Below are positions 4,742 to 37,739 of a DNA stretch of 64,000 bases, in pieces. Within the stretch, counting starts at the first letter, position 1, and every line of letters starts with the position of its first letter. Source of the stretch: Mycobacteriales bacterium (GTDB taxonomy: Bacteria > Actinomycetota > Actinomycetes > BP-191); assembly GCA_046590575.1 (NCBI GenBank), contig JBKJUS010000107.1, forward strand, positions 9,934-73,933. Reading direction: 5' to 3'. The notes below the pieces were generated by a model. That model ran no database searches, was not told where the DNA came from, and was given only the letters and a program-made list of their open reading frames with translations. A program made the translations under genes and the position numbers.

Positions 4742-4918
4742 GCGGATGGACTCGCTTTCACGTGCGTCTGGGTGGTGGGTATAGGTGCAGACTTCTGCGT
4801 TACGACCGTCACTCCTGCGCCGTGGGCGGAACGGGCCGCACAGCGATGAAGGGGCAGCCCAGGCGGGCTGCCCCTTCATCGGACGGTGCTGACGGTCCAG
4901 TGCGACCGCGTGGAGTGC

Positions 4919-5665
4919 CTAGCGGGAGGTGCGCGCCTCGGCCGGGCGGCGACGACGGCTGGCGACGGCGACGGTGCCGGCACCCACGGAGAGCGCGAGG
5001 CCGATGCCGACGAGGGAGAGGGCCAGGAGAAGGCCGTCACCGCGGGGTGCCATGGTGGTGGAACGCCGAGCCGCCGGAGCCGCTGCAGGAGCGCCCTGGA
5101 TGGCCGGGGCAGCTACCGCCGCCGGAGCCGCTGCAGGAGCCGGAGCGACGACGGCGGCAGGCGCCGGAGCGGCGATGCCGGGCTGAACAGCAGAGCCGCC
5201 CTGACGGGCCGGCGCCTGGGCCGGCGCGGCCGGCTGCTGGTTAGCGGCGGCGGGCTGGGCCGGGCGGGCAGCGACTGGCTTGGCGAGCACCTCGAACGGT
5301 GCGCGGGCCGGAGTGCCGCCGATAGGCTGGCCGTTCTGACCCATCTGGGTGGCGATCAGGACGTAATCGCCAGGGGCAGCCTGGGGCACGGTGAAGTTGA
5401 AGGCGATCTTGCCATCAACAGCCGGCCGACCCGACCACAGAACCTGACCATCGCGGGCGTTGAAGTGCACCTCGACCGGGCTGGACAGTGGACTGTTGCT
5501 GAAGCCGGCACCGGTACCGGCGACGTCGGCGCCGACCTGGGCCGCACTCTTGTCAACCTCGAGGGTGGCCAACGCCGTGCAGGCGTAGGCGAACGACATA
5601 GCGGCGAGCGGGACACCCACCAGTCCGGCGATGACGATTGACGATCGTCGGGTCCTGATCCGCAT
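4919..5665 (-). CDS. Pro/Ala-rich secreted, membrane-anchored hypothetical protein
   Basis: The internal ATG MRIRTRRSSIVIAGLVGVPLAAMSFAYA has a strong RBS (aaggagga). The protein has an N-terminal signal/TM, a globular segment, a long PA-rich low-complexity linker, then a C-terminal hydrophobic helix LLLALSLVGIGLALSVGAG followed by a RRRRP tail. The longer ORF start at 6118 has no support. Confidence 0.55.
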   Translation of the reverse strand: MRIRTRRSSIVIAGLVGVPLAAMSFAYACTALATLEVDKSAAQVGADVAGTGAGFSNSPLSSPVEVHFNARDGQVLWSGRPAVDGKIAFNFTVPQAAPGDYVLIATQMGQNGQPIGGTPARAPFEVLAKPVAARPAQPAAANQQPAAPAQAPARQGGSAVQPGIAAPAPAAVVAPAPAAAPAAVAAPAIQGAPAAAPAARRSTTMAPRGDGLLLALSLVGIGLALSVGAGTVAVASRRRRPAEARTSR

Positions 5666-5816
5666 TGCGTCCTCCTTTGGGGGAGACGATGTCTCCACAT
5701 ACTGCACGGCTGGGTGCAAACTGCACCTATTGTCCCGAATCGGGCACTCGGTTGTCAACCACGCGACTTCGCGGGCGCGGCGCGCCCAATCTGTGGCGCG
5801 CAGCCGACCGGTTACG

Positions 5817-7346
5817 GTGTGCGACGTGCCTCGATGTCGCCGCACTTGGCACCATTCAGCCGCCGTTCCTGCGATGGTGGCGGCCCTCCTTGGAGGCGTC
5901 GCCTGTACGCCGGCGACACCCGCTAGCGTCGCGGCGCCGAAGGCTGGGGTCGAGGTCTTCGTCAACACCCCGGGCGCCATCGACGCCAACAACACACCCA
6001 CAATCGTACGAAATCCGCGGCGCCCCAGCACATTGGTGGTCGTCCACCGGGTCGACCGGCCACGCTTCTCCGGGACGCTGCGCTGGAGCCAGGACGACGG
6101 CGCGACCTGGGGCAGCACTGCGCTGCCCTTGCCCTCGGGAAAGGACCGGCCGTTCCACCCGGACGCAGCGTTCGGGCCCGATGGTGTCCTCTACGTCGTA
6201 TACGGCAACCTCACCGGACCGCGCAACATGGGCGACGGGATCTGGGTCGCCACCTCGACGGACGGCGGCCGCACCCTGACGGAGCCCGTCCGCGTTGCCG
6301 CCGCTCGGTCCTTCCAGCCGCGGATCGCGGTGAGCCGCGGCGGCATGGTGCACGTGACCTGGTTGGCGGGCCGGGGCGTTTCGGTCCTCAAGCTTGTCGA
6401 CCCTCCGTCGCCGATCGTGACCGCCCGGTCGACCGACGGCGGCCGCACCTTCGGGAAGCCGGTTCAGGTCAGCGATCTGACGCGCGCGCGGGTGGGGGCC
6501 GGGAAGCCGTTCATTGACGGTCGTGGCGACCTCGCCGTGCTCTACATCGACTACAAGAACGACCGCAGAGACTTCGAGGACGAGCCGGGCCCGCCGTCGG
6601 ACGAGCGTTTCGCGCTGGTGCTTACTCGGTCCGGCGATGGAGGCAAGACGTTCGACCGCGGCGTTGAGATCGAGCGCGACGTGGTGCCGGCTCGTCGCTT
6701 CCTGGCCTTCGTGCCGGAATACGCCGACCTAGCGGTCGGGCCGGACAAGGCGATGTACGCCGTGTGGTCGAGCCGGCTCGACGGCGATGAGGATGTCTAC
6801 CTCCGCAAGTCCACTGACAACGGCGAGACCTGGTCCGAGGCGGTGAGGGTTGGCGCCGCGATGGACAACACCGCCGCCGACAAGTCGTCGCAGTACTTGC
6901 CGTCGGTTGACGTTGCGCCGGACGGGCGGGTGGACGTCCTGTATCTCGACCGCGCTCGTGATCCACGTGACGTGCTCGCGGACGCGACGCTAGCCACGTC
7001 GTACGACGACGGCCAGACATTTCAGGTTGTGCGCCTGTCCTCGAAGTCCTTCGACTCGACTGTCGGCTCGTCGGTCTCGCCCAACCTCCCCGCAGACTTC
7101 GGCAGCCGGCTGGCGCTGCTCAGCGAGACCGGCCGCGCGGTCGCAGCGTGGACCGACACGCGCATGGGGAACGCCGACACCGGTCGGCAGGACATTGCGC
7201 TTGTTCGCATCACGCTGGCTGAGAAACGCGCCGGGCGCGGGCCGCTCTGGAGCGTCGGGGCCGGCGTCGCCGCCGCTGCGCTGGCCGCGTTGGTGGGGAC
7301 ACTCATCTTGCGCCGTCGCAGGCGTCGGGGGAGGGTGGCGCGATGA
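5817..7346 (+). CDS. BNR/Asp-box repeat protein with C-terminal TM anchor (paralog of 820..2304)
   Basis: Asp-boxes are present (SQDDGATWGS, STDGGRTLTEP, STDGGRTFGKP, SGDGGKTFDRG, STDNGETWSEA, SYDDGQTFQ). The C-terminus is LWSVGAGVAAAALAALVGTLILRRRRRR. The start is uncertain: GTG at 5817 or 5826, or ATG at 5874, giving a lipoprotein-like MVAALLGGVAC. The track start at 5631 would overlap the upstream minus-strand gene. The stop overlaps the start of the next gene (ATGA). Confidence 0.7.
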   Translation: MCDVPRCRRTWHHSAAVPAMVAALLGGVACTPATPASVAAPKAGVEVFVNTPGAIDANNTPTIVRNPRRPSTLVVVHRVDRPRFSGTLRWSQDDGATWGSTALPLPSGKDRPFHPDAAFGPDGVLYVVYGNLTGPRNMGDGIWVATSTDGGRTLTEPVRVAAARSFQPRIAVSRGGMVHVTWLAGRGVSVLKLVDPPSPIVTARSTDGGRTFGKPVQVSDLTRARVGAGKPFIDGRGDLAVLYIDYKNDRRDFEDEPGPPSDERFALVLTRSGDGGKTFDRGVEIERDVVPARRFLAFVPEYADLAVGPDKAMYAVWSSRLDGDEDVYLRKSTDNGETWSEAVRVGAAMDNTAADKSSQYLPSVDVAPDGRVDVLYLDRARDPRDVLADATLATSYDDGQTFQVVRLSSKSFDSTVGSSVSPNLPADFGSRLALLSETGRAVAAWTDTRMGNADTGRQDIALVRITLAEKRAGRGPLWSVGAGVAAAALAALVGTLILRRRRRRGRVAR

Positions 7347-8107
7347 GAGTCGCCTTTGTGGGAAAGGGTGGGGCCGGCAAGTCGGCCATCGCCGGCACGT
7401 TCGCCCGGTCGCTCGCGCGTCGCGGCACATCGGTGCTCGCGTTGGACACCGATCCGCTCCCCGGCCTGGCGTTCTCGCTAGGCCTGCCCTCGACAGACGC
7501 GCCGATCCCGGAGGAAGCCACCGAGGAGAAGGCCGAAGGGGAGGATGGCCCGCGCTGGCGATTGCGCTCGGATCTGACGCCAGTAGAGGCAGTAGAGCGG
7601 TACGCCGCAACGGCGCCCGATGGCGTGCGCTTCCTGCAGTTCGGCAAGGTGCGGCGTCAGTGGACGGCGCCGGAGGTTCGCTCGCAGTTCGTCTTCCGGC
7701 AGATCGTTCATTTCCTCCCTGAGGAGCCGTGGAGCCTCGTCGGTGACCTTCCTGGTGGCACCCGACAGGCGTTCGGCGGGTGGGGGGGCTTCGCCCGCAC
7801 CATGCTCGTGGTGGTCGACCCCAGCGCCAAGTCGCTGCTTTCGGCTCGAAGGCTGGCCCGACTCGCCTCGATCGGCGAGGACCCGCCGCGGGTTGTTGCG
7901 GTGGTCAACCGCGTGCGTCAGGACGACGACGAGGCACTGGTGGCGCGGCGTAGTGGGCTCGATGTGGTGGGCGCGGTGCCATGGGACGAAGAATTCGCCG
8001 ATGCCGAACGTCGTGGCCTGGCGCCCATAGACGCCGCGCCGAACTGTCCGGCAGTGAAGGCAGTAGAGTCCCTCGTCGACCGACTGTGCGAGGAGTCCAG
8101 AGCATGA
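7343..8107 (+). CDS. CooC/MinD/ParA-family deviant-Walker-A P-loop ATPase, Cys-less paralog A
   Basis: N-terminus MRVAFVGKGGAGKSAIAGTFARSLARRG (KGGxGK[ST]). The conserved C-terminus is DAERRGLAPIDAAPNCPAVKAVESL. It has no CxC metal-binding motif and is closest to the paralog at 12846..13586. Confidence 0.8.
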   Translation: MRVAFVGKGGAGKSAIAGTFARSLARRGTSVLALDTDPLPGLAFSLGLPSTDAPIPEEATEEKAEGEDGPRWRLRSDLTPVEAVERYAATAPDGVRFLQFGKVRRQWTAPEVRSQFVFRQIVHFLPEEPWSLVGDLPGGTRQAFGGWGGFARTMLVVVDPSAKSLLSARRLARLASIGEDPPRVVAVVNRVRQDDDEALVARRSGLDVVGAVPWDEEFADAERRGLAPIDAAPNCPAVKAVESLVDRLCEESRA

Positions 8108-8844
8108 AGCTAGCCGTCGTCGGCAAGGGTGGGTCGGGCAAAACCACCACCTCCGCGATCATCGCGCGCACCTTCGCCCGAAACGGCGCGAACGTCGTCG
8201 GTCTCGACTGCGACTCCAACCCGAACCTCGGCATTTCGCTAGGTGTCGGCGACGACGAGACGGAGCGGCTTGAGTCCATGCGCCAGGCGCTCGACGAGGG
8301 CGACGAGGAGCACGCGCCGGGCTGGGACGAACTGATCGAGCGGTTCGGCTCCGACGCCCCTGACGGGGTTCGCCTCGCGGTGGTCACCCGCATTCAGAAC
8401 CCGGAGCCCGGCTGCCCTTGATGTGGTCTCTCTCCCGAGCAGTTGCTCGGGTCCGTGGACTTCACCGACACCGTCGTCGTCGCTGACCTCGAGGCCGGCA
8501 TCGGCACGTTGACCCGCATGGGTGACCAGAAGATTGACGTCGTACTCGTCGTCGTCGAGCCGACGCCGAAATCCGTCGAGGTCGGCGTACGGGCGTGCGC
8601 GCTCGTGCGGGAGAAGCAGTCGGCTGGGCAGCTCATCGTCGTGGCCAGCCGCGTGCGCAACGACGACGACCTGGCGATGGTGCGCAAGTCGTTCCCCGAC
8701 GAGGAGGTCGTGCCGATTCCTGACGACCCAGCCATCGTCGCCGCCGACCGCGAAGGGGTGGCCGCGCTGGACCGTACGCCGGACGCACCGGCCGTGCGCG
8801 CCCTGGTTGAACTGGCCGAGCGACTGCTGCCTGCAGGCGTCTAG
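8104..8844 (+). CDS. CooC-like P-loop ATPase with an in-frame TGA (8419..8421); candidate selenoprotein, read-through product 246 aa
   Basis: Track ORFs 7981..8421 and 8443..8844 are in the same frame with no other stop between them. The N-part is MKLAVVGKGGSGKTTTSAIIARTFARNG...NPEPGCP-TGA-CGLSPEQLLGSVDFTDTVVVADLEAGIGT..., so the two halves together equal one full-length paralog. The TGA lies inside the CxC-motif region that Cys paralogs have (GCLCSAHATV.., GCTCSGHATV.., ACVCCGSHAT..). A perfect 7-bp hairpin, cccgagc-agtt-gctcggg, sits at about 8434..8451, 12 nt after the TGA. selABCD are in this window. Confidence 0.6.
8434..8451 (+). promoter_or_regulatory. candidate SECIS-like hairpin 12 nt downstream of in-frame UGA 8419..8421
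   Basis: cccgagc-AGUU-gctcggg forms a 7-bp perfect stem. The spacing matches the roughly 11-nt UGA-to-stem distance of bacterial SECIS elements. Confidence 0.35.
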
Positions 8845-8848
8845 GCGG

Positions 8849-9232
8849 ATGGATTCTCGGCTCGCGCTTCCACTCGCCGGGTTAGCCGTCGGCGGCTGGG
8901 CGCTGCTGCCGCCGTATTCCGGTCCAGCGTTGAACACTGAGACACGCGTTGAGGTCATTGACCACGTCGTCCCCGGCATCGTGCTGCTCGCCGTAGCTGT
9001 GCTGTGCCTCGCTGTTCGTCGCGCCACGCTGCCGTCGGGGCTGATCGTGGCTCTCTGCGGCTTATGGATGGTCGCGACCCACGTGCCGCTGGTGCGCCAG
9101 GCCGCTGACGGCGCCGCGCCGTGGAGCGCCGTCGCCTACCACGCGGCGCCGTCGGTGGCAGTGTTGATGGTAGGTCTGTTGTGGGTGGTCCAGACATGGT
9201 CGGCTGAGGCGAACGAAAGCGCCCGGCACTAG
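8849..9232 (+). CDS. small polytopic membrane protein (about 127 aa, about four hydrophobic helices), hypothetical
   Basis: Internal ATG MDSRLALPLAGLAVGGWALLPPYSG... The sequence is strongly hydrophobic throughout. The longer ORF 8522..9232 would overlap the ATPase gene. Confidence 0.5.
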   Translation: MDSRLALPLAGLAVGGWALLPPYSGPALNTETRVEVIDHVVPGIVLLAVAVLCLAVRRATLPSGLIVALCGLWMVATHVPLVRQAADGAAPWSAVAYHAAPSVAVLMVGLLWVVQTWSAEANESARH

Positions 9233-9245
9233 CATCTGCGCCCTG

Positions 9246-10775
9246 ATGCCCAGCGTGTCGCTCCACCCTTCGCGGCTGCCCGCCGATGCCGACGGCGTTG
9301 CGTCGGGTGAACTGCGCATCCGGAACAACTCTCGTACGACGAAGACGTTCCGCCCGGAGGTGACCGGCGCCGCCGCCGACTGGGCGTCATTCTTTCCGCC
9401 GTCGGTCGCCGTCGGTCCGGGGCAAACCGGTGTGGTCCGATTGAACATGCGCGTGCGTCCCTCCCCGTCGACGCCAGTCGGGGTGGTCGACTTCGCGGTG
9501 GTGATCCACGGTGACGCGAGTGCGAAGCGCACGTTGTCTGTCAACGGGTCGATCGATGTTGCGGCACGGGCGGTGGTGGTGACCACCGTCGGCCCCATCA
9601 CCAACCCTTCGCCGTCTACCTCCATGCAGATGCTGCATATAGAGAACCGCGGAAACGGTGCGGGTCGGATGGCTGTGAGCGCCGCCGGTTCTGGCGTGCT
9701 CGTCGATGTCTCGCCGGAGCAAGCCGAACTGGCACCGGGTGAAGAGGTTGCGGTCGCCGTGCGTGCTCGGGCGGCGCGGCGGACATGGCGGGACAGTCGC
9801 GAGCTGCCCTTCCAGATCGACGTCGATGGCACGGGTGCGGCTCCCCGACGCATAAACGGCGCAGTCGCGCGGCGTCCGCTGCTGACGCGCCGCGCGGGTT
9901 GGGCGGCTACGGCCGGGCTGGCGGTGTTGCTGACGGCGGTCGTGCTGCGTACGACGGTTTTGGCTCCTGCTCCTGAAACGAAGCGGGTCATCGCGAAGGC
10001 GTGCCCGACGGCCGGCCACGAGCCGTCGTTGCGCAATGCGATCTCGTTTCCGCCCGGCCCGCTGAACAAACCGGCGACGGCGTACACCTACTACTCGCTT
10101 GAGCCTGGAAGCTGCGTAGCGCCGCGATTCAACCCGTGTGAGCCGTTGCGGTACGTGCTGAACTCGGACGCGGCACCCGCTGGAGGAGTGGCCGACGCGA
10201 AAGCCGCCCTCGCCATCGTCTCGGCGGCCACCGGCTTGTCCTTCGTCGAGGTCGGCTCGACCGACGAGAAGTTCAGCGCAGTGCGGTCGCCGTACCAGCC
10301 AGAGCGGTACGGCAACGAGTGGGCCCCTCTGCTGATCGGCTGGTACCGCCAAGGTGGCAGTGACAACCGGGTGATCCTCGGCCAGTCGCGCCCCTACGTT
10401 TCTCAAGGTGTTTACGTCAGCGGGTTCATCGGCCTCAATGTCGACGCCTACACCGAAGCCGAGACGAGGAGCCCGCTGAAGAGTGGGTTCGGCCCGGTGC
10501 CCGGCGCCGTGCGGGGACAGCCGATCGGCGCTCGAGGGGTCACTTGGGGCCGGGTGCTGCTGCACGAGCTGGTCCACCTGGTCGGTCTGGCCCACGTCGC
10601 GGACAGGTCACAACTGATGGTGTCCGAGCTCTCCCTGCACACCAATCCGCGGGCGGAGCTCGGCGCCGGAGACGTGGCCGGGCTGCGCACCCTCGGTCGG
10701 GCCGCAGGATGTCTTCCTACGCCGCCGGCGGGCTCACCCGGGCGCTACCCGGCGCCACCTCCTCCTTTCCTCTGA
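9246..10775 (+). CDS. membrane-anchored protein with C-terminal metzincin-type Zn-metalloprotease motif (HExxHxxGxxH)
   Basis: HELVHLVGLAHVAD is near the C-terminus. A single central TM (GWAATAGLAVLLTAVVLRTTVL) is present. The N-terminal region has two Ig/CARDB-like beta-rich segments. Downstream of the TM the protein is Cys-containing and Pro-rich. Confidence 0.65.
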   Translation: MPSVSLHPSRLPADADGVASGELRIRNNSRTTKTFRPEVTGAAADWASFFPPSVAVGPGQTGVVRLNMRVRPSPSTPVGVVDFAVVIHGDASAKRTLSVNGSIDVAARAVVVTTVGPITNPSPSTSMQMLHIENRGNGAGRMAVSAAGSGVLVDVSPEQAELAPGEEVAVAVRARAARRTWRDSRELPFQIDVDGTGAAPRRINGAVARRPLLTRRAGWAATAGLAVLLTAVVLRTTVLAPAPETKRVIAKACPTAGHEPSLRNAISFPPGPLNKPATAYTYYSLEPGSCVAPRFNPCEPLRYVLNSDAAPAGGVADAKAALAIVSAATGLSFVEVGSTDEKFSAVRSPYQPERYGNEWAPLLIGWYRQGGSDNRVILGQSRPYVSQGVYVSGFIGLNVDAYTEAETRSPLKSGFGPVPGAVRGQPIGARGVTWGRVLLHELVHLVGLAHVADRSQLMVSELSLHTNPRAELGAGDVAGLRTLGRAAGCLPTPPAGSPGRYPAPPPPFL

Positions 10776-10799
10776 CGGCGCAAGGGCATACTGGCCGCC

Positions 10800-11573
10800 A
10801 TGAAGCTGGGAGTGGCTGGCAAGGGCGGCGTGGGTAAGACGACGATCTCAGCGGTGCTCGCCCGTTCGCTGGCGCGGCGTGGTCACCGGGTGGTCGCTGT
10901 CGACTGCGACTCCGACCCCAACCTAGCCGCCAACACAGGACTCACTGAGGTCGAGGCGGCCGGTGTCCGCACCCTGCTCGACCAGTCTTCGGCGGTGCGC
11001 TCGGTGCCGGTCGGAGTAGGTCCCCGAGGGCTGCTTGCGGAGTACGGCCGGAGTGGACCGGACGACATCACTCTTCTGACTGCGGCGCGAGCAGAGCGAG
11101 CCGGCTCTGGTTGAACGGGTGCCGCCCACGTCACGGTCCGTGACTTCCTGCAGCAGTTCGACTCTGAGATCGCGTCGGGCGTCGTCATCGCCGACATGGA
11201 GGCAGGTCTTGAGCACCTGTCCTGGGCGGGCGGCACCCTGCGCCACATCGACCTGCTCCTCGTCGTGGTGCAGCCCTCGCCCAAGGTTCAGCTCACGGCG
11301 CGTCGAATCGTGGCGTTGGCCCGTCAGCTCGGCATCCCGCGCACCGCGTTCGTCGGCAACCGGCTGCGCGACGGCGACCTCGAACAGCTGCGCACTTTTG
11401 CCGGCGAATGTGGCGTCGAGCTGCTGGCCACCATCCCCGAGGACGTTGCGGTGCAGGCGGCTGACCGCGTCGGCGATTGCCTGCTCGACTCCGCCCCGGA
11501 CTCCGATCTGGTGCGGGCCGTAGACGGTCTAGCCGCGCGGCTCGAAGCGGACTTCCTCTCCGTCCTGTCGTAG
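10800..11573 (+). CDS. CooC-like P-loop ATPase with an in-frame TGA (11112..11114); candidate selenoprotein, read-through product 257 aa
   Basis: Track ORFs 10800..11114 and 11196..11573 are in the same frame with no other stops. The read-through sequence ...AARAERAGSG-U-TGAAHVTVRDFLQQFDSEIASGVVIADMEAGLEHLSWAGGTL... aligns residue for residue with paralog 13583..14338, ...NEAGAGCTCSGHATVRSFLGDALADQADITLVDMEAGLEHLSRAGGTL... The TGA falls exactly on the first Cys of the CxC motif. A 6-bp hairpin gtcacg-gtc-cgtgac with a GUC loop lies at about 11130..11144, 15 nt after the TGA. Confidence 0.65.
11130..11144 (+). promoter_or_regulatory. candidate SECIS-like hairpin 15 nt downstream of in-frame UGA 11112..11114
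   Basis: gucacg-GUC-cgugac forms a 6-bp stem with a GUC apical loop, which recalls the G/U apical loop of the E. coli fdhF SECIS. Confidence 0.35.
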
Positions 11574-11688
11574 CGGCGCCAGCACGCGAGCGCGCCGCTG
11601 GTATCCCTGTCCGCCTTGCTGGCACCAGTAGATGCCGTGCGCATATACTCGCGCCGGACTGCGCGGTGACCAGGTTGGTGGATGGCGG

Positions 11689-12069
11689 ATGGCGAACAGG
11701 GCTGGGGCCAGCGGGGAGTTCACGGTGAAGAGTCGTCGTGGCTCTTTCCTGACGCAGTCTCTGTTGCTCTTGCTCGAAGAGCGCCCCGACCACGGGTACG
11801 ACCTGCTTGACCGGATGGAGCACCTGGGTCTCGCGCGAGACTCCGGCGGGATGTACCGCACACTGCGCAGCCTCGAGGCGGAGGGGCTCGTCCGGAGCCA
11901 GCGCGCGCCCTCGCTGGCCGGACCGGAGCGGCGACACTACTCACTCACCCAGGACGGCCGACAGCGGCTCGACGAGGACGCCGGGGAGATCGCCGAGACC
12001 GTGCGCCTGCTTCAGCGATTCCTTCGGCGGCACCGGGCCGCAATCGCACTTCGGCACCCGACGGATTAG
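11689..12069 (+). CDS. PadR-family transcriptional regulator
   Basis: LLLLLEERPDHGYDLLDRMEHLGL...MYRTLRSLEAEGLV...RRHYSLTQDG matches the PadR winged-HTH signature. The start is taken at the internal ATG MANRAG. Confidence 0.8.
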   Translation: MANRAGASGEFTVKSRRGSFLTQSLLLLLEERPDHGYDLLDRMEHLGLARDSGGMYRTLRSLEAEGLVRSQRAPSLAGPERRHYSLTQDGRQRLDEDAGEIAETVRLLQRFLRRHRAAIALRHPTD

Positions 12070-12105
12070 CTCGGCACCCCGCAGATTGCCTGCACTGCAG
12101 TGCCG

Positions 12106-12849
12106 TCAGCCGTCGAGGAGCCGTGTCGTGAGCTCGTCGATGGCGACCATCGCCGGGGACCCCGCGTCGTGGTCCAACGGTGAGATGCCGAGATGGTCAG
12201 CCCGCTGCACGGAGGGGTCGTCCGGAATCGCGATGGTCTCCACGCCGAGCAGCTCCGAGAGCCGGACCCGCTCTGCCTCGGAGTGACAGCGCGCCGCGAC
12301 ACCGATGATCCTCTTGACGCCGAGGGTGTCGGCGATGTCGCGCGCCCGCCGGGCTACTTCGAACGCCTTCGCACTGGGCTCAGCGACCGCGATGACGACG
12401 TCCGTCGAGCCGGGCTTGGCCCAGATCAGGTCGTTGAGACCCGCCTCGAGATCGGCGATGACAGTGCGCCCGTCATCGGAGAGGGCACTGAAGAGCTCGC
12501 GAGTCGTCGCGTGCGAGCCGCAGCAGACGCAGGCATTGGGGATGCGCTCGATCTTGCCGGTCGCGACGAGGCGTACGCCGTCCGGGGTGTCGACGCCGTA
12601 CCGTTCGAGCAGCATCTCCGGGTCAGGGCGCGGGTCGTTGTGCGTGTGGCCGCTGCGGATCAGCCCGTTGAGCACCGCGTCCATCGACTCGACCGCATCG
12701 ATGGACAGGCCGAGCGTGACTCCGAGGTTGGGGCTCGGGTCGCAGTCGACGGCCACGACGCTCTGACCGCGGCGGGCGAGCAGCCGGGCCATGGTCCCGG
12801 AGACAGTGGTCTTGCCTGCTCCGCCCTTGCCGGTGACGACGACTTTCAT
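12106..12849 (-). CDS. CooC-like P-loop ATPase, Cys paralog D (CVCC motif)
   Basis: MKVVVTGKGGAGKTTVSGTMARLLARRG...IPNACVCCGSHATTRELF...VIADLEAGLNDL. The start overlaps the stop of the upstream gene. Confidence 0.85.
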   Translation of the reverse strand: MKVVVTGKGGAGKTTVSGTMARLLARRGQSVVAVDCDPSPNLGVTLGLSIDAVESMDAVLNGLIRSGHTHNDPRPDPEMLLERYGVDTPDGVRLVATGKIERIPNACVCCGSHATTRELFSALSDDGRTVIADLEAGLNDLIWAKPGSTDVVIAVAEPSAKAFEVARRARDIADTLGVKRIIGVAARCHSEAERVRLSELLGVETIAIPDDPSVQRADHLGISPLDHDAGSPAMVAIDELTTRLLDG

Positions 12850-13586
12850 AGTCGGACCTCCTCGCGCACCAGCAGGCCGGCGAGCGTCTCGATTGCGCCG
12901 ATGACGGGGGAGTCCGGGCAGGCGTCCAACGGAGCGAGACCGCGGCGTTCTGCGTCGGCCACGTCACGGTCGAATGGAATGCGAACGTCGGGCGCGAGGC
13001 CCTCGTGGTCCGACTCGCCGGTGAACTTGCTGGCCACCACGATGTAGGGGAGTCCGGGGAAGAGCCCGGCGAGGCGGCGGGCCGCCAGCGCGGACTTCCA
13101 CGCGGGTGTCACGACCAGCACCAGCCGCTGGGCGAAGCTGCTGTAGCCCTCGTACGGCGTCGTCGTACCCGCCTCGAGGTCGCCGATGACATCCCAGGAG
13201 GAGTCGGCCTCCCCGACGATCTGCCGCACTGCACCGAGGGAATGGCTGACCAGGTGGTTCGGCCTGTCGATCTTGCCGGGGCTGAGGTATCGCACCCCGT
13301 CGGGACTCTCGGTCGCGACCCGTTCCAGGATGTCTATGGAATTCACGTCCGGTGCCAGACCCCACCCGTAAAGTCCCTTGGGCACCTCGGCGATGAACTC
13401 ATCAGGAAGTCCCGCATCAGTGGGCTCGCTGCCTAAGCTCCACGCGAGGCCGGGGTTGGGGTCGAGGTCCACGGCGAGCACCTTCCGCCCGCGTCGGGCG
13501 AGGAGGCGGGCCAAGGTCCCGGAGATCATCGACTTGCCGGCGCCGCCGTTTCCCACGACGGCGACGCGCAGACCGACGCTGCTCAC
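12846..13586 (-). CDS. CooC-like P-loop ATPase, Cys-less paralog E with degenerate Walker A (GNGGAGKS, signature Lys replaced by Asn)
   Basis: A GTG start overlaps the upstream TGA (GTGA). The sequence is VSSVGLRVAVVGNGGAGKSMISGTLARLLARRG...VADAERRGLAPLDACPDSPVIGAIETL, similar to paralog A. The 150-aa Arg-rich N-terminal extension of the track ORF is spurious. Confidence 0.7.
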   Translation of the reverse strand: MSSVGLRVAVVGNGGAGKSMISGTLARLLARRGRKVLAVDLDPNPGLAWSLGSEPTDAGLPDEFIAEVPKGLYGWGLAPDVNSIDILERVATESPDGVRYLSPGKIDRPNHLVSHSLGAVRQIVGEADSSWDVIGDLEAGTTTPYEGYSSFAQRLVLVVTPAWKSALAARRLAGLFPGLPYIVVASKFTGESDHEGLAPDVRIPFDRDVADAERRGLAPLDACPDSPVIGAIETLAGLLVREEVRL

Positions 13587-14338
13587 CCGACCAGCGCCCC
13601 GTCGAGGTAGTCGAGGACCCGCTCCAGCTCGTCGCGCACAGCGTTGCCGCTCCCGAACTCCAGCCGGGCCCCGGAACGGTCGGCGTCGACGATGTCTGGT
13701 TCGAAGGGGATCACGCCGATGAGCGGTACGCCGTACTCGGCGCAGACGTCGCGGAAGAAGTCGCCGTCCTCGGGCATCCGGGCCTTGTTGCCGATGCCGT
13801 AGGTGCGGGGGATGCCGAGCTCTTCGGCGAGGGCGACGGTGCGCGCGCCGGTGAGGATCGACTTGCGGCTGGGTTCCATCACCATCAGCAGGACGTCGGC
13901 GTAGGCCAACGTGCCACCCGCGCGGCTCAGGTGCTCCAGACCGGCCTCCATGTCGACGAGGGTGATGTCGGCCTGGTCGGCGAGCGCGTCGCCGAGGAAA
14001 CTGCGGACGGTCGCGTGGCCCGAGCAAGTGCAGCCCGCACCGGCCTCATTGACCCGAATCGCCGAGAGCAGGGTCGCGCCTGACGGCGTGGGCCGGCCGT
14101 ACTCGCTGATCAGTTCTTCGGCGGTGGTGTCGCCCTTGGCGCCGACGATGAGCATGCGTGGCATGACCGGGACGGCCTCCATCTCCGCCATCGACAAGCC
14201 CAAGGAGAGCCCGAGGTTGGGGTTGGAGTCGGTGTCGATGGCCACCACCCGCTTGCCGCGCCTGGTGTAGGACTCCGCGATAAGGCCGGACATCGTGGTC
14301 TTGCCCACGCCGCCCTTGCCGACGATGCCGAGCTTCAT
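13583..14338 (-). CDS. CooC-like P-loop ATPase, Cys paralog F (GCTCSGH motif)
   Basis: Internal ATG MKLGIVGKGGVGKTTMSGLIAESYTRRG...AGAGCTCSGHATVRSFLGD...LVDMEAGLEHL. This is the closest Cys-containing homolog of the TGA-containing gene 10800..11573. Confidence 0.85.
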   Translation of the reverse strand: MKLGIVGKGGVGKTTMSGLIAESYTRRGKRVVAIDTDSNPNLGLSLGLSMAEMEAVPVMPRMLIVGAKGDTTAEELISEYGRPTPSGATLLSAIRVNEAGAGCTCSGHATVRSFLGDALADQADITLVDMEAGLEHLSRAGGTLAYADVLLMVMEPSRKSILTGARTVALAEELGIPRTYGIGNKARMPEDGDFFRDVCAEYGVPLIGVIPFEPDIVDADRSGARLEFGSGNAVRDELERVLDYLDGALVG

Positions 14339-14488
14339 GACCGGACCTCCACATGCTTGGCTGGCGATGACCCGCACTGGCGCGCACACTCTCACGAGAC
14401 CGTCTCATCGCACGGTGTCGCGGAAAGTTTGGCGCCGTGCCATCCTGCGGCTGAGGCGGGTGATGTGCAACCAAGGGAGCAGCTTCGA

Positions 14489-15268
14489 ATGAGAGTGGCC
14501 CTCGCCGGTAAGGGCGGCGCCGGCAAGACGTCCATCTCGGCCACGCTGGCCCGCTCGATAGCGCGGACCGGGGTGCAGGTCGTGGCGATCGACGCGGACA
14601 GCAATCCCAACCTCGCTCTCGCCCTCGGCATCCAGCGCGAAGCGGCGCTGAGCGCCGGCTACCTGCCCCACCAGCTCGTGTCGCGCAAGCTCACGGGGCT
14701 GTCGATGGTCGAGAGCGTGGACACCGTTCTGGCCCAGCACGCCTTGCCCGGTCCGGACGGTATCTCCGTGGTTCTGATGGGGGCACCCGCCCATGCCTCG
14801 GCCGGCTGCCTGTGCTCCGCGCACGCCACAGTGAGTGCGCTGCTCGGTGACCTGGGCGAGCGCCCCGAGATCGTCACCGTCGTGGACATGGAAGCCTCGC
14901 CTGAGCACCTGAGCCGGGGCACCGTGCAGCACGCCGACGTCTTGCTCCTCGTCGTGGAGAGCTACTTCCGCGCCCTGGAGTCCGGACGCCGGCTGGCCGT
15001 GCTCGCGGCCGAGCTGCCGATCCCGCGGGTCGCCGTCGTCGCCAACAAGGTGCGCTCATCGGAGGACTCCGCCGTCATCCGGGAGTTCTGCGAGCGGCAC
15101 GACATGGAGCTGATCGCCGAGGTGCCTTGGAGTGATTCGGTCACGTCGGCCGACGTCCGATCCGTCCCTGTCATCGATGCACCGGGCAACGAAGCGGTAG
15201 TCGCAGCGGTGCTCGGCCTAGCCAATAGGATCCTGCCCTCCCTTCCGCTAGTGGCGCCACGCACCTAG
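14489..15268 (+). CDS. CooC-like P-loop ATPase, Cys paralog G (GCLCSAH motif)
   Basis: The internal ATG has the RBS aagggagc. The sequence is MRVALAGKGGAGKTSISATLARSIARTG...ASAGCLCSAHATVSALLGD...VVDMEASPEHL. Confidence 0.85.
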   Translation: MRVALAGKGGAGKTSISATLARSIARTGVQVVAIDADSNPNLALALGIQREAALSAGYLPHQLVSRKLTGLSMVESVDTVLAQHALPGPDGISVVLMGAPAHASAGCLCSAHATVSALLGDLGERPEIVTVVDMEASPEHLSRGTVQHADVLLLVVESYFRALESGRRLAVLAAELPIPRVAVVANKVRSSEDSAVIREFCERHDMELIAEVPWSDSVTSADVRSVPVIDAPGNEAVVAAVLGLANRILPSLPLVAPRT

Positions 15269-17958: not shown

Positions 17959-18039
17959 GCAGGCCTCCGGCGTACGACGGCGTCGTCGCCGTGGCACGAG
18001 TCTAGATGTTTGACACATCGACAGCATAGGGTCGCTGTC

Positions 18040-18555: not shown

Positions 18556-18575
18556 GGGCGCTTCTGCATGTGGCG

Positions 18576-33158: not shown

Positions 33159-34964
33159 CTACGGCAGGGGGCCAGGAGCAGCCACCACCACGCGCTGGGA
33201 GTCGTCAATGCGGCGGGTGAGACCGAGTCGGTCGAGGTGCTCGAGCAGCGGGACCGCAACCCGACGTGTGGTGCCCAGCGCTTGGCGCGCCTGGCTCATG
33301 GAGAAGGGCTGAGGAAGCGCTGCAAGCGTCGGCAGTGCCGATTCGACGGCGTCCGGGAGAAGGTAGATCCCGTCCGTCAGCGCCAGCAACATCCCGTGCC
33401 GCACCGCCGTCGCAAGAACGGTTGCGGTCAATCCGAGTGAGTCGAGATCCGCGGCGGCCGGCGCGGCGTACGGCGTCTCCGCAAGACGTCGGGCAACCTG
33501 GCTCAGCGCGTCGCTTTGGCCGTCAGTGAAGCCAGGCGCGGCGCCGGCCCGGCGTACCAAGCCGCCGCTCGACTCCAGAGTCGGCACATCGGCGGCCAAC
33601 GCCGAAAGCAGCCTGGCGTCAGGGGCACCGACGGCTTGCCGTGCTGCCTCTGTCGGCAGACCACCGCGCAGCGGGTGCCGGTGTTCGTCATCTGCCACCG
33701 CGGCCACCAGTAAGTGCTGCCATTGCTGCCATTGCGCGGCGGAGATCAACCAGTTCCCCACCTCCACCGTGTCCTCGGGGGCTGGGTCGTCCTGGTGGAT
33801 CACTCCCCACGCCGCGAGCTCTTCCCGGCGGACCGCACCGCGTCGGCGCACCTCGCCAGCCGGGTCCGGTGCGCCGCTCATGCCCTGCAGAGACGTGGCG
33901 CGCCTCGCCGCCCCGCCGCGCCGTGACAGCGGCTCCGGCGCGGCGTCGAGAACGACCACTCCGGCGACCACCCGCTGCTCTCCTGGGTCACGCAGCAGGG
34001 CCCGATCGCCGGGCTGAAGCGGTAGTGCCGCTGTGAGGTGCAGCCGGGCGGTGTCATCGCCGAGTCGGCGTACGTCGACGGCCACAGCGGCGGATCCGAC
34101 GTGCATCAGCAGGGTGGCCGGCAAGCGGGCCGAGCCTTCCGACCCAGCGTCCAGCCGCACGTCGACCAGGTCGGTGGTTCGCCAGCCGCCGACGGTCACC
34201 AGCGCATTGCCCCGGCGTACGTCGGAGACATCGACACCTCGCAGGTTGACCGCGACGCGAGCTACGGCCTCGACCTGGTCGGCATGACGTTTGAGGCTCT
34301 CCAGCCCGCGGACCCGTACCTGGAGGCCCTGCGGGGAGATCTGCAGCGTGTCTCCCACGCGCAGGGTTCCCGCGCCGAGCGTGCCGGTCACCACCGTGCC
34401 GCTGCCCCGGATGGTGAACGCCCGGTCGACCCACAAGCGAACGCGCGCAGCAGGGTCCGGCTCCGGGAGATCACCTACTAGACGATCGAGCGCACTCCGC
34501 AGGTCGTCGACACCTGCACCGGTGACTCCGCTCACCGCTACCGCTTCGACATCACCGAGAGCCGTGGCCCGGAGGTGCTCCAACGCTTCCGCCATGGCCG
34601 GGCCGGGGCTGGCGAGGTCGCAGCGGGTGATCGCGAGCACGCCATGCCGGACCTGAAGTGCGTCCAGCGCTGCCAAGTGCTCGACCGACTGCCGACTCCA
34701 ACCTTCGTCAGCAGCCACGACGAAGAGGACCGCCGGCGCCGGCCCGACGCCGGCGAGCATGTTGGGCACGAAGCGCTGGTGCCCCGGAACGTCGACGAAG
34801 GCGATCTCCACTCCGGACGGCAACGTGGTCCAGCCGAATCCGAGGTCGATCGTCATGCCCCGCCGGCGTTCCTCCGCCCAGCGGTCAGGCTCCATGCCGG
34901 TGAGCGCGCGGACCAACGTCGACTTGCCGTGATCCACATGGCCTGCTGTCGCGACGACGTGCAA
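33159..34964 (-). CDS. selB: selenocysteine-specific translation elongation factor SelB
   Basis: MHVVATAGHVDHGKSTLVRALTGMEPDRWAEERRRGMTIDLGF...FVDVPGHQRF is collinear with E. coli SelB (GHVDHGKTTL...RGMTIDLGY...DVPGHEKF). Length 601 aa with a long C-terminal SECIS-binding extension. Confidence 0.9.
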   Translation of the reverse strand: MHVVATAGHVDHGKSTLVRALTGMEPDRWAEERRRGMTIDLGFGWTTLPSGVEIAFVDVPGHQRFVPNMLAGVGPAPAVLFVVAADEGWSRQSVEHLAALDALQVRHGVLAITRCDLASPGPAMAEALEHLRATALGDVEAVAVSGVTGAGVDDLRSALDRLVGDLPEPDPAARVRLWVDRAFTIRGSGTVVTGTLGAGTLRVGDTLQISPQGLQVRVRGLESLKRHADQVEAVARVAVNLRGVDVSDVRRGNALVTVGGWRTTDLVDVRLDAGSEGSARLPATLLMHVGSAAVAVDVRRLGDDTARLHLTAALPLQPGDRALLRDPGEQRVVAGVVVLDAAPEPLSRRGGAARRATSLQGMSGAPDPAGEVRRRGAVRREELAAWGVIHQDDPAPEDTVEVGNWLISAAQWQQWQHLLVAAVADDEHRHPLRGGLPTEAARQAVGAPDARLLSALAADVPTLESSGGLVRRAGAAPGFTDGQSDALSQVARRLAETPYAAPAAADLDSLGLTATVLATAVRHGMLLALTDGIYLLPDAVESALPTLAALPQPFSMSQARQALGTTRRVAVPLLEHLDRLGLTRRIDDSQRVVVAAPGPLP

Positions 34965-34967: not shown

Positions 34968-36269
34968 TCAGCCCGCCGCTCCGGCAACAGCCAACACCGC
35001 GTCGCAGAGCTCGGCATCACGCGCAGCGGGAACGCAGCGGAGGTCGAGCAGACAACGGTCGCGCTCGACCCGGCCGACGACACAGGGGTCGCCGAGCCGC
35101 AGCGGCTCGGCAAAGCCAGGAGGCAGGGTGACCGCGGCGCCGGGCAGCACGAGACCGGGCGCGCCGCCGCCCCCGACCGCACCGTCGGAGTCCTCCACGG
35201 TGGCGTCGACACCGCGGCTCACCAAGTCGGCGACCATGGCCGCTGCCCGGAGACGCAACCCATCCTGGCTCTCCGCGAGCGCCGATTGGGTCGGCGTAGC
35301 CGGCCCGCGGATAGTTGCTTCGAGAGCTGCGAGGGTGAGCTTGTCGACACGCAGCGCGCGGGCCAGCGGATGCCGTCGTAGTCGTTCAACCAGGTCCGCG
35401 CGGCCGAGGATCAGACCGGCCTGCGGTCCGCCGAGCAGCTTGTCGCCGCTGCACGTCACCAAGCCAGCACCGGCCTCAAGCGCAGAGGTCGCATCCGGCT
35501 CCGCCGGCAGGATGGGATCGGGGTGGAGCAACCCAGAGCCGATGTCGACGACGAGCGGTGGGCCGAGCGCGGCGAGCGCAGCCACGCTGACCGAGCTGGT
35601 GTAGCCCACGACGGCAAAGTTCGACGGGTGAATCTTCACGATGCACCCGGTGGATTCGTTGACCGCGTCGGCGTAGTCCTCAGCCGAGGTCCGGTTGGTA
35701 GTGCCCACCTCACGGATCCGCGCTCCGGTCGAGCAGATCAGCTCCGGCAGGCGGAACCCGTCCCCGATCTCCACCAGCTCACCCCGGCTGACGACAACCT
35801 CGCGTTCGGCAGCCAGGGCGGTGACCGCAAGGACAAGGGCTGCTGCTCCGTTGTTGACGGTGAGGGCTGCCTCTGCGGCGGGCACTGCCGAGAGCAGCGC
35901 TGACGTCGTGCCGCGTCCCCGCGACGCGCGACGTCCGGTGGCCACGTCGTACTCAAGGTCGACGTAGCCCGCGGCCATCGTGACGGCGGCCACCGCCTGG
36001 TCCGAGAGAGCGGCCCGGCCAAGATTGGTGTGCAGCACGACGCCGGTTGCGTTCAGCACCGGGCGCATCCGCACCGGCACGCCGGCCAGGGCGCGGGCGA
36101 CCTCGTCGGCGACCTGATCGGGTGCGATCTCTCCGGCGCGGGCGCGGGCCACGGTATCGATCACGACCCGTTTTGCTTCCGTCCGGTTCACGCGCTCGAG
36201 CGCGGCGAGCACGCGGGGCTCGGCGAGCACGGAGTCGACACGTGGCAGCTGACGCCTGCTGTCTGTCAT
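34968..36269 (-). CDS. selA: L-seryl-tRNA(Sec) selenium transferase SelA
   Basis: LPRVDSVL, NATGVVLHTNLGRA and the PLP-fold region match SelA. The stop abuts the selB start, and the start is the ATG at 36269. Confidence 0.9.
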   Translation of the reverse strand: MTDSRRQLPRVDSVLAEPRVLAALERVNRTEAKRVVIDTVARARAGEIAPDQVADEVARALAGVPVRMRPVLNATGVVLHTNLGRAALSDQAVAAVTMAAGYVDLEYDVATGRRASRGRGTTSALLSAVPAAEAALTVNNGAAALVLAVTALAAEREVVVSRGELVEIGDGFRLPELICSTGARIREVGTTNRTSAEDYADAVNESTGCIVKIHPSNFAVVGYTSSVSVAALAALGPPLVVDIGSGLLHPDPILPAEPDATSALEAGAGLVTCSGDKLLGGPQAGLILGRADLVERLRRHPLARALRVDKLTLAALEATIRGPATPTQSALAESQDGLRLRAAAMVADLVSRGVDATVEDSDGAVGGGGAPGLVLPGAAVTLPPGFAEPLRLGDPCVVGRVERDRCLLDLRCVPAARDAELCDAVLAVAGAAG

Positions 36270-36567
36270 GAGCTCCCTCGGCCACACCGGTTTTGAAGCC
36301 TGACCTTACCGATTTCGGCGACCCTGCTGAGCGGCGCAGCCTTGGCCGTGACGGCGGAACTCGGACAGGAAACCTCCACCGTTGGGCGGACGCTTCCGCG
36401 CCGGGCGCGATGCATCCTGTGCTGATGCCGTCCTCGGGACTCTCGCCAGTCACCCTGTCCGCATCCACGCTCCGGACGCATCCATCGGAGACCCCGTGAA
36501 GCTTCCTGTTCGTTCCGCACTCGTCGTCGCCGCGGCTTCCGCTCTGGTGTTCCGTAGTCAGAGCATG

Positions 36568-36663
36568 TGGCGGAGGCGGACGGGAATCGAACCCGCCTGA
36601 CCGAGATCCTCGGCCACACCGGTTTTGAAGACCGGGAGGGCCACCAGGCACCTGTACGCCTCC
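36568..36663 (-). tRNA. selC: tRNA-Sec (selC), anticodon UCA, 96 nt, CCA encoded
   Basis: The reverse complement reads GGAGGCGTACAGGTGCCTGGTGGCCCTCCCGGTCTTCAAAACCGGTGTGGCCGAGGATCTCGGTCAGGCGGGTTCGATTCCCGTCCGCCTCCGCCA. The anticodon loop CUUCAAA carries UCA, there is a long variable arm, the GTTCGATTC T-loop is present, and it has an extended acceptor stem. It lies between selA and selD. Confidence 0.85.
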
Positions 36664-36725: not shown

Positions 36726-37739
36726 ATGACGGTGACGGAGAGCGCGAAAACGTATCGGCTGACGCAGTTTGCCCACGGGGGTGGCTGTGCCTGCAAGATC
36801 CCGCCCGGCGAGCTCGAGCAGATCGTCGCCGGTCTGGTCGGACTTGATCCGTCCGACGGGACCGCGGAGCTGCTCGTCGGTCTGGACGGGGGTGACGACG
36901 CTGCAGCGGTGCGCATCGATGCGAAGACCGCGGTGCTGTCGACGGCCGACTTCTTCACCCCCGTCGTCGACGACGCCTACGACTGGGGCCGGATCGCTGC
37001 CGCCAACGCGTTGTCGGACATCTACGCGATGGGCGGCACCCCTCTGCTCGCCATCAACTTGCTCGCGTGGCCGCGAGACGTCCTGCCCCTGGAGCTGGCG
37101 ACCGAAGTGCTCAGAGGCGGTTTGGATGTTGCCCGCGAGGCACGCTGCCACGTGGCCGGCGGACACAGCATCGACGATCCCGAGCCGAAGTACGGCATGG
37201 CCGTCACCGGGGTCGCCCATCCCGATCGCCTGTTCCGCAATGACGCGGGACGCCCGGGCGACGTGCTCTCGTTGACCAAGCCGCTGGGCATCGGCGTGCT
37301 TAACAGCCGGCACAAGCAGACGGGGGAGGTTTTTCCCCAGGCCATCGACGCTATGACTTCTTTGAACCGCGATGCGGCAGGTCACGCGCTGGCTGCCGGT
37401 GTCCGTTGCGCGACGGATGTGACTGGCTTCGGCCTGCTGGGCCATCTGTACAAACTCGCGCGCGCCAGTGGAGTCACCGCCGAGATCGACTCCAGCGCTG
37501 TGCCCTATCTCGACGGCGCAGTGGCCGCGGCGCGCGACGGCTTTGTTAGTGGTGGGACGCGCCGCAACCTCGACTGGGTCGACCCGCACGTCGACTTCGG
37601 CACCATGGATGAGGTGCAGCGGCTGCTCTTGGCCGACGCGCAGACGTCAGGGGGCCTCCTCGTCGCCGGTGAGGTGCCGGGCGCGCCGATCATCGGACGC
37701 CTGGTCGCGCGCGACGGAGTGACCGTTCGGGTCCGGTGA
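36726..37739 (+). CDS. selD: selenide, water dikinase SelD (selenophosphate synthetase), Cys-type
   Basis: MTVTESAKTYRLTQFAHGGGCACKIPPG... is collinear with E. coli SelD (RLTQYSHGAGCGCKISP). The active-site residue is Cys, not Sec. Confidence 0.9.
   Translation: MTVTESAKTYRLTQFAHGGGCACKIPPGELEQIVAGLVGLDPSDGTAELLVGLDGGDDAAAVRIDAKTAVLSTADFFTPVVDDAYDWGRIAAANALSDIYAMGGTPLLAINLLAWPRDVLPLELATEVLRGGLDVAREARCHVAGGHSIDDPEPKYGMAVTGVAHPDRLFRNDAGRPGDVLSLTKPLGIGVLNSRHKQTGEVFPQAIDAMTSLNRDAAGHALAAGVRCATDVTGFGLLGHLYKLARASGVTAEIDSSAVPYLDGAVAAARDGFVSGGTRRNLDWVDPHVDFGTMDEVQRLLLADAQTSGGLLVAGEVPGAPIIGRLVARDGVTVRVR

Follow-up and report, generated by a model that had tools for sequence, protein, structure and literature searches.

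A predicted selenocysteine codon in a CooC/MinD-type ATPase gene of a Mycobacteriales bacterium and in its homologs from soil bacteria

In a 64,000-nucleotide stretch of DNA from a Mycobacteriales bacterium (NCBI GenBank assembly GCA_046590575.1, contig JBKJUS010000107.1, positions 9,934 to 73,933 of the forward strand; the whole stretch is called the window below), we analysed a gene, designated gene A, that encodes a CooC/MinD-type P-loop ATPase and is interrupted by one in-frame TGA. Comparison with related sequences indicates that this TGA, at window positions 11112-11114, is very probably a selenocysteine (Sec) codon, decoded via a downstream hairpin that would serve as a selenocysteine insertion sequence (SECIS).

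Gene A encodes a CooC-like ATPase with a UGA at codon 105

Gene A (10800..11573, plus strand) runs from an ATG to a TAG over 257 codons, and its sole internal stop is the TGA at codon 105 (11112..11114), read here as Sec in the motif G-S-G-U-T-G-A-A-H of a predicted selenoprotein. An initial annotation, made from the sequence letters, had taken the open reading frames (ORFs) 10800..11114 and 11196..11573 for two pieces of one frame separated by a single TGA, and the translation agrees. Before and after the TGA alike, the same frame shows the GC pattern of coding sequence in this genome of 68% GC, and the gene caller of the source record cut gene A into products of 104 and 125 amino acids (aa).

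The assignment of the product to the CooC-like ATPases, also made initially, is confirmed: sequence and fold both identify it as a P-loop ATPase of CooC/MinD type whose Walker A motif is deviant. This motif, GKGGVGKT (residues 7-14; 10818..10841, plus strand), is invariant in the family alignments A1, A2 and A4, and the sequence and alignments also reveal a Walker B/switch II motif, DMEAG (residues 132-136; 11193..11207, plus strand). The product matches Pfam CbiA with 67.5 bits, and its best sequence match in the PDB is CooC1 (3KJE, E=9e-21, identity ~25%). For the fold, we used an AlphaFold (AF2) monomer model of the Cys ortholog P0006, standing in for gene A (pLDDT 92.8); its top match is again CooC1 3KJE (TM 0.76), followed by MinD/FlhG and by nitrogenase Fe proteins (NifH/BchL-type). 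In this model the recoded residue lies in a loop directly before helix 106-122. The UGA had been described as replacing the first Cys of a CxC motif. Codon 105 does align with the first Cys of GSQ-C-Y-C in CooC1, but the second Cys is Gly in gene A, leaving an incomplete motif, U-T-G and not U-x-C. His110 is nearly invariant and His139 invariant in the family alignments.

A Cys counterpart of gene A, P4 (13583..14338, minus strand; motif A-G-A-G-C-T-C-S-G-H), is encoded in the same window and is 52% identical to it. P4 reads ...AGAGCTCSGHATVRSF...VDMEAGLEHL where gene A reads ...RAGSG-TGA-TGAAHVTVRDF...ADMEAGLEHL, placing AGAG-C-T-C-SGHATVRSF opposite RAGSG-U-T-G-AAHVTVRDF. The Cys/Sec pair proposed initially thus stands, with a Cys at the UGA column of P4 and the same pairing recurring among homologs (below). 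The alignment of the two proteins is not gap-free as had been stated, since a one-residue indel separates the motif from DMEAG.

The TGA recurs among homologs and the frame behind it is conserved

A protein search run with Cys put in at codon 105 of gene A retrieved full-length orthologs, at ~60% identity, with GSG-C-TG(A/S)AH, together with many fragments of ~146 aa starting just past the motif, the signature of gene callers halting at a TGA. The Cys orthologs P0001, P0002, P0004, P0006 and P0008 read GSG-C-TG and are single polypeptides. In the DNA of five of the fragmentary homologs, an in-frame TGA is found exactly at the gene A column. Subfamily profile scans of species-representative genomes and metagenomes, with the patterns [IV]DCD[ST]DPN and V[VI]ADMEAG, yielded 160 further loci; L082 and L166, which gave no alignment to the query, stand outside the counts. 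Cys and TGA at this column, the comparison suggested by the initial annotation, are both found. TGA occurs in 150 loci (7 from the five homologs fetched first, 70 on genome contigs and 73 on metagenome contigs) and TGC in 13 (0, 9 and 4, respectively), while the column is uncovered in 2 loci, both on metagenome contigs. The recoded column is therefore TGA in 150/163 and TGC in 13/163 related loci, never TGG (Trp), where 150:13 is the ratio of the gene A subfamily and not of all CooC-like proteins, because the scan patterns favour this subfamily. Every record checked has the homolog gene cut into two fragments annotated as 'hypothetical' or 'ATP-binding'.

TGA forms make up 70 of the 79 loci from species-representative genomes. 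They are present in Acidimicrobiia, Mycobacteriales, Pseudonocardiaceae and other Actinomycetota, as well as in Chloroflexota and Acidobacteriota, there at 37-48% identity; over all 150 TGA loci, identity ranges from 37 to 68%. In every 3'-complete locus, no stop interrupts the frame for 144-180 codons (median 152) past the TGA. For codons +14 to +100 downstream of the TGA, dN/dS has a median of 0.15 and a maximum of 0.52 (644 pairs), and by this sequence measure the stretch past the TGA is under purifying selection. A neighbour-joining tree places two small Cys subclades within a large Sec clade.

The recurrence of the TGA in 150 independent loci is more than chance would produce. It bears directly on the explanation that the TGA is a nonsense mutation in one of many redundant paralogs, or a sequencing error. 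Seven CooC-like paralogs in the window make such redundancy plausible, and two relatives carry further defects: L063 has an additional in-frame stop, and a Blastococcus ortholog of a second window gene (gene B, below) has a TAG. On the other side stand the TGA at one column in loci of 37-68% identity, the open frame of 144-180 codons, a dN/dS of about 0.15 and a linked RNA hairpin with compensatory changes (below). Because the TGA recurs, the frame is open and dN/dS is low, we exclude a pseudogene or sequencing error, an explanation to which we give next to no credence; copies of a single contaminant sequence are likewise excluded because the loci are divergent. The L063 gene, a TGA form from a Pseudonocardiaceae metagenome-assembled genome (MAG), has its additional stop 18 codons upstream of the Sec codon (around 5684-5738), and may be a decaying copy or contain an assembly error.

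A hairpin downstream of the UGA is a probable SECIS element

Fifteen nucleotides past the TGA, the plus strand carries a hairpin at 11130..11144, GTCAC-GGTCC-GTGAC, with arms GUCAC (11130-11134) and GUGAC (11140-11144) and loop GGUCC (11135-11139). A hairpin at this distance had been noted initially, with a GUC apical triloop; the hairpin is present, but its loop is rather one of five nucleotides, N-G-U-N-C, on a stem of five base pairs (bp). In an alignment of 134 TGA sequences (117 distinct), the five stem pairs are 99.3% paired over the distinct sequences, whereas shifting the register by 1-3 columns leaves only 20-42% paired. Compensatory changes are seen in three of the five pairs, namely U-A to C-G (9 sequences), C-G to U-A (3) and A-U to G-C (1). 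The loop is GGUCC in 69 sequences and CGUGC in 52; its G25 is invariant and its U26 present in 133/134, while positions 24 and 28 are C and C in about 40% of the sequences.

Synonymous positions of the Sec forms are constrained as well. The Arg codon within the hairpin is CGT in 132/134 Sec forms versus 1/13 Cys forms (Fisher p=9e-15), and the two Sec forms without CGT have CGC with a compensating G in one case and Gly GGT in the other. The peptide encoded over the hairpin is HVTVR(D/G) in Sec forms and drifts to HITIRN and HVTIRE in Cys forms; the hairpin is not formed in the Cys orthologs, nor in the Cys paralogs of the window. The covariation, together with a synonymous-codon constraint confined to Sec forms, supports the view that the hairpin behaves as a SECIS element.

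The published model of bacterial SECIS elements (bSECIS) specifies a loop of 3-9 nucleotides with G in its two opening positions, an upper stem of 4-16 bp, a UGA-to-loop distance of 16-37 nucleotides and an energy <= -7.5 kcal/mol. With 20 nucleotides from UGA to loop, a stem of 5-6 bp and a loop containing G then U, the gene A element fits the geometry of this model. Like the Escherichia coli fdhF-type SECIS and the bSECIS consensus, it is a stem-loop within the coding region just after the UGA, with G then U in the loop. It differs from them in being very short, in falling just short of the energy criterion when taken alone, in having no covariation-backed lower stem and in having no Rfam match: Rfam searches, at gathering thresholds on the whole window and at permissive settings on 11080-11200, returned only tRNA-Sec and no SECIS family.

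Two extensions of the hairpin were considered and rejected. A longer stem UGAA/UUCA (columns 1-4 with 34-37) reaches 88% pairing, but covariation in it is nearly absent and the Phe-Ile codons are a confounder, and a 5' mini-hairpin GGG/CCC (columns 6-8 with 14-16) is 85% paired and is lost in the U-T-W and U-x-C clades. RNAalifold retained the core hairpin only.

Two further patterns were noted in the same region. Loop positions 24 and 27 of alignment A3 (window 11135 and 11138) co-vary, with G..C in 70 sequences and C..G in 53; being too close for base-pairing, they may reflect lineage structure or a preference in contacts with SelB. Codon choice in Sec forms is unusual over the stretch that separates the UGA from the hairpin (alignment A3, columns 4-18; window 11115-11129): the base after the UGA is A in 130/134, Thr is ACG in 107, and His is CAT in 91/134, while CAC dominates the Cys forms. 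This bias suggests additional constraints at the level of RNA or context.

The hairpin also bears on whether the TGA could be a true stop, with halves of 104 aa and about 150 aa made separately and then assembled. Gene callers do annotate two products, some of them starting from a GTG inside the hairpin. Such a split gene is nevertheless extremely improbable: the restart codon is not conserved, since a GTG is missing from the GGTCC loop of the window and of 69 other sequences, and one must go 27 codons further, into DMEAG, to reach the next ATG of the window. Moreover, the Cys orthologs are single polypeptides, and the break would fall inside the P-loop NTPase fold.

The window encodes the machinery for selenocysteine insertion

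The initial annotation placed the selABCD genes about 22 kb away, and selB, selA, tRNA-Sec and selD do lie at 33159-37739, 21.6 kb from gene A. On the minus strand are selB (33159..34964; GTP_EFTU and SelB-wing_3, the SECIS-binding winged-helix domain), selA (34968..36287; SelA, E=4e-97) and a tRNA-Sec with anticodon UCA (36568..36663; Rfam 78.6 bits); selD (36726..37739), identified by sequence match, is on the plus strand. The selD product is of the Cys type (HGGGCACK) and is therefore not itself a selenoprotein. The tRNA-Sec gene is placed between selA and selD, on the strand opposite to selD. This check of the Sec machinery covers the source window, the other loci being mostly from metagenome bins.

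The UGA might instead be read through without selenium, by near-cognate insertion of Trp or Cys or under a reassigned code, with the hairpin as a generic stimulator of read-through. Selenium-independent insertion of Cys at Sec codons occurs under selenium limitation, which counts in favour of this possibility, and a JGI product, P0005 (L007 530-532), shows Trp at the Sec position. This Trp is, in fact, a translation-table artefact (TGA as Trp), because the DNA reads TGA. The genes selA, selB, selD and tRNA-Sec in the window, the sense alternative in orthologs, which is always Cys TGC and never Trp TGG, and the retention in the loop of the G-U required by the bSECIS model all argue against decoding without selenium, which we consider very unlikely.

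Several observations weigh against the assignment of gene A as a selenoprotein gene of CooC1 type. The hairpin overlaps the codons for V-T-V-R-D, and the conserved peptide HVTVRD confounds part of its conservation, although constraint is nonetheless visible at the synonymous sites of the hairpin in Sec forms. The hairpin is short and by itself reaches -7.3 kcal/mol in the window and -5.5 in L001, compared with the bSECIS cut-off of -7.5; its z-scores against shuffled sequences are unremarkable, and the 64 nucleotides past the UGA, at -15.6 kcal/mol, fold no better than shuffles. The TGA:TGC ratio is inflated, the search patterns having been tuned to the gene A subfamily, and the CooC-like family at large is mostly Cys. 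Nearly all homologs come from metagenome bins. Finally, the second Cys of the CxC motif is replaced by Gly or Trp in the gene A clade (U-T-G, U-T-W), and the metal-site chemistry of CooC1 is therefore not transferable to it; sister forms of gene A keep U-x-C.

Paralogs of gene A and a candidate second recoded gene

Seven CooC-like genes lie within an 8-kb part of the window (7343-15268). On the plus strand, P1 (7343..8107) lacks a Cys motif, and its stop overlaps the start of gene B (8104..8844) in an ATGA by which gene B is translationally coupled to it; gene A follows, with a gene for a PadR-family regulator (11632..12069, plus strand) directly downstream. On the minus strand are P2 (12106..12849; A-C-V-C-C-G), P3 (12846..~13565, start approximate; no Cys motif) and P4, and P5 (14489..15268; G-C-L-C) is again on the plus strand. 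Gene A is 52% identical to P4 and P1 47% identical to P3, while gene B resembles P2 mainly in the motif. These genes can be interpreted as two sets, a 'selenium set' of P1, B and A on the plus strand and a 'sulfur set' of P4, P3 and P2 on the minus strand, with P5 as a seventh gene.

Gene B, a CooC-like gene with an in-frame TGA at 8419-8421 (motif G-C-P-U-C-G), is a candidate for a second recoded gene, detected when the window was scanned with Walker A as the anchor; a scan of the window by GC3 for TGA-interrupted frames returned adjacent separate genes only and missed both genes A and B. Gene B reads NPEPGCP-U-CGLSPEQLLG and is followed by a strong 7-bp hairpin, CCCGAGC-AGUU-GCUCGGG, at 8434-8451. 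Seventeen homologs of gene B read PGCPCCG, and in two loci of gene B type (L058 and L161) the TGA is present along with the hairpin, and the frame remains open for 135-140 codons. With three Sec sequences only, the support for gene B is thinner than for gene A. In the alignment, its Sec falls on the second Cys of CxC, versus the first in gene A.

In Blastococcus saxobsidens (GCA_004217455.1), the gene B ortholog (L168 10805-11545, minus strand) has a TAG at the Sec/Cys column and keeps a SECIS-like hairpin and an open frame of 140 codons past the TAG; it could be a recent pseudogene or contain a base-call error.

Other genes are interleaved with the plus-strand CooC-like genes. They encode BNR/sialidase-like beta-propeller proteins (820-2304, 2390-4879, the latter with cell-wall-binding repeats, and 5631-7346) and an Ig-like/FixG_C protein whose C-terminus is matrixin-like (9246-10775). 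Similar genes flank the Sec gene in L002, L003 and L012; by tblastn with the window neighbours, BNR, Ig-like and PadR genes are present in only 5-8 loci.

Relatives of gene A are associated with [NiFe]-hydrogenase genes

A [NiFe]-hydrogenase cluster occupies window positions 17890-27782, its two hydrogenase subunit genes lying 10 kb from gene A. It comprises a NifU-like gene (17890-18555), the hydrogenase large subunit (21860-23761, minus strand), which ends in the ordinary Cys motif DPCMPCTTH, the small subunit (23790-25154, minus strand), hypC (25310-25582), hypD (25579-26712) and hypE (to 27782), together with genes for TPR and PD40 proteins. The parts of the window that were scanned revealed none of hypA, hypB and hypF. 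CO dehydrogenase genes (cooS/acsA) were seen neither in the scanned window parts nor in the loci, the linkage being instead to [NiFe]-hydrogenase genes.

In distant loci of the U-x-C form, PadR, the Sec gene, HydS, four short ORFs and HydL lie on one strand, and two more CooC-like genes adjoin. The order PadR-Sec-HydS-HydL is seen in loci of Chloroflexota and Acidobacteriota type (L083 590-6299, L086 3667-11447, L081, L163, L165 and L074). Short ORFs between the subunit genes are the arrangement reported for group 1l hydrogenases (bioRxiv 10.1101/2020.08.06.239558). Two cultured species, Blastococcus saxobsidens and Haloechinothrix halophila, have Cys homologs within hydrogenase clusters that also contain 3-4 further CooC-like genes and hypC, to which the Blastococcus cluster adds PadR and the Haloechinothrix cluster hypD, hypE and hypF; hypA and hypB were not seen within 20 kb in either cluster.

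The fetched flanks of the subfamily are less favourable to a hydrogenase link: they hold a single CooC-like gene in 146/165 loci and no hydrogenase gene at any U-T-G locus. De novo clustering of the ORFs flanking the U-T-G clade found lineage synteny only (leuA/leuCD, pafBC-like WYL, GNAT, signal peptidase). The link to hydrogenases is thus drawn from the gene neighbourhoods of relatives. A protein of ~260 aa without Pfam match is encoded directly upstream, on the same strand, in 36/121 U-T-G loci (an Acidimicrobiales subclade; L001 4864-5640), and may be a functional partner.

A possible metal site and its client

Of the explanation that we favour, only the recoding part is strongly supported; the steps after it are modelled on CooC1. 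The hairpin 15 nucleotides past the UGA would act as a bacterial SECIS and recruit SelB-GTP-Sec-tRNASec, encoded in the window, and the ribosome would insert Sec and finish a protein of 257 residues. By analogy with CooC1, ATP binding would close a homodimer and bring the two copies of residue 105 opposite each other at the interface, where they would form a metal site whose most likely occupant is Ni. In place of four thiolates, the ligands of this site would be two selenolates, perhaps together with the conserved His110, and ATP hydrolysis would open the dimer and allow the metal to pass to a client enzyme. That the metal is Ni and the client a [NiFe]-hydrogenase is, by this analogy, a proposal that we hold to be evenly poised between right and wrong; [NiFe]-hydrogenases are the likeliest class of client because relatives of the gene A protein sit in hydrogenase operons.

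The reference for these steps is CooC1 of Carboxydothermus hydrogenoformans (3KJE/3KJG/3KJH/3KJI), the ATP-dependent Ni-insertion factor of Ni,Fe-CO dehydrogenase, which shares with gene A the deviant Walker A motif and a DxxAG switch II. According to a passage of PMC3792862 that cites Jeoung et al. (2009/2010), the CxC motif of CooC1 is a metal chelator located at the dimer interface, and the protein dimerises in response to Ni, ADP or ATP. The gene A protein, in contrast, is only ~25% identical to CooC1, has Sec for the first Cys and Gly for the second, has no nearby CO dehydrogenase gene and has hydrogenase-linked relatives. The initial claim that Sec occupies a metal-ligating Cys at a dimer interface is accordingly sound as regards the alignment with the first CxC Cys of CooC1, a known chelator, while the role of the residue as a metal ligand in gene A is suggested by homology. 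In the large subunit of [NiFeSe]-hydrogenase, Sec takes the place of Cys and binds Ni directly, which offers a precedent; that Sec, however, belongs to the active site of an enzyme, whereas the one of gene A would belong to a chaperone. A functional parallel may be HypB, a nucleotide-dependent dimer with interface Cys ligands for Ni that delivers Ni to hydrogenase. An analogous role for CooC-like proteins is plausible because the hydrogenase clusters with CooC-like genes show hypC, hypD and hypE (and hypF) and no hypA or hypB in 20 kb. HypB, however, is a G3E GTPase that is not homologous at the motif level, and the substitution is suggested by gene neighbourhoods only.

Alternatively, Sec could be inserted but serve other than as a Ni ligand, for instance in redox chemistry or chalcogen transfer (through a diselenide switch between the subunits, or by carrying a perselenide or persulfide) or as a ligand of another cofactor, e.g. 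an Fe-S cluster like that held by Cys97 of NifH, a cluster ligand whose position we take to be that of the recoded residue in gene A. In the clade that has lost the second Cys (U-T-G, U-T-W), the four-thiolate site of CooC1 cannot form, which leaves room for a redox or Fe-S role. Fe proteins of the NifH/BchL type come next among the fold matches, known selenoproteins are for the most part redox proteins, and the hydrogenase cluster contains a NifU-like gene. We nonetheless regard such a role as possible but somewhat unlikely: in both sequence and fold the protein is nearest to CooC1 and not to NifH, and the alignment suggests that the position of the second cluster ligand of NifH is His in gene A. 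The Sec of gene B, at the other CxC position with the flanking Cys kept, points to a metal site, and the sister forms keep U-x-C and sit in hydrogenase operons.

A broader and more speculative scheme is one that we think rather unlikely to hold. In soil Actinomycetota, Chloroflexota and Acidobacteriota, the [NiFe]-hydrogenases that tolerate oxygen and scavenge atmospheric H2 would receive their Ni from a dedicated set of CooC-like ATPases, three in number, and not from HypA/HypB. A 'selenium edition' of this set would operate in many lineages. The window would encode both editions: on the plus strand the selenium one, made up of U-T-G, C-P-U-C and a partner without Cys, and on the minus strand the sulfur one, made up of C-T-C, C-V-C-C and a partner without Cys.

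A predicted selenoprotein family widespread in soil bacteria

Table 1 of a 2026 review of 119 prokaryotic selenoprotein families lists no CooC/MinD/ParA/CbiA-type ATPase, and its nearest entry is a CobW-related G3E protein (PMC13188914). Like gene A, this is a predicted selenoprotein and a metallochaperone-type NTPase of the SIMIBI class with Sec in a Cys-rich metal motif; it differs in belonging to the G3E GTPase family, not to the MinD/CooC-type ATPases, and in its motif. 'Hypothetical protein DG' (GUxG), considered as a possible prior description of the gene A family, is an unrelated protein without domains. No NCBIfam model reaches its cutoff with gene A (the best, minD_arch, scores 63 bits versus a cutoff of 202), and a full-text literature search combining selenoprotein or selenocysteine with CooC returned nothing relevant. 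CooC-like ATPases are thus, as had been suspected from the outset, absent from the established selenoprotein families, both in the 119-family list and in NCBIfam. Within the literature searched, the family defined by gene A is undescribed as a selenoprotein family, the recoding mechanism itself being ordinary.

The gene A family is widespread in soil bacteria. Its recognition would mend the annotation of genes now cut in two, and aerobic soil Actinomycetota and Chloroflexota would gain members in their known selenoproteomes. Among the bacterial selenoproteins known so far, the majority are redox proteins of the thiol type (PMC13188914). In contrast, gene A would place Sec in an ATP-driven protein of metallochaperone type, at the residue that holds metal in CooC1, and its sister gene B would place Sec on the neighbouring ligand position. 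In this family, selenium may be tied to the assembly of a nickel enzyme, the hydrogenase. The hydrogenase clusters without hypA/hypB in the stretches seen raise the question of how Ni reaches these hydrogenases and of whether the oxidation of atmospheric H2 needs selenium. If a dedicated set of CooC-like ATPases does install the Ni, the oxidation of trace-gas H2 in soils would depend in part on the supply of selenium, and coordination between selenium and nickel would serve metal trafficking and not catalysis.

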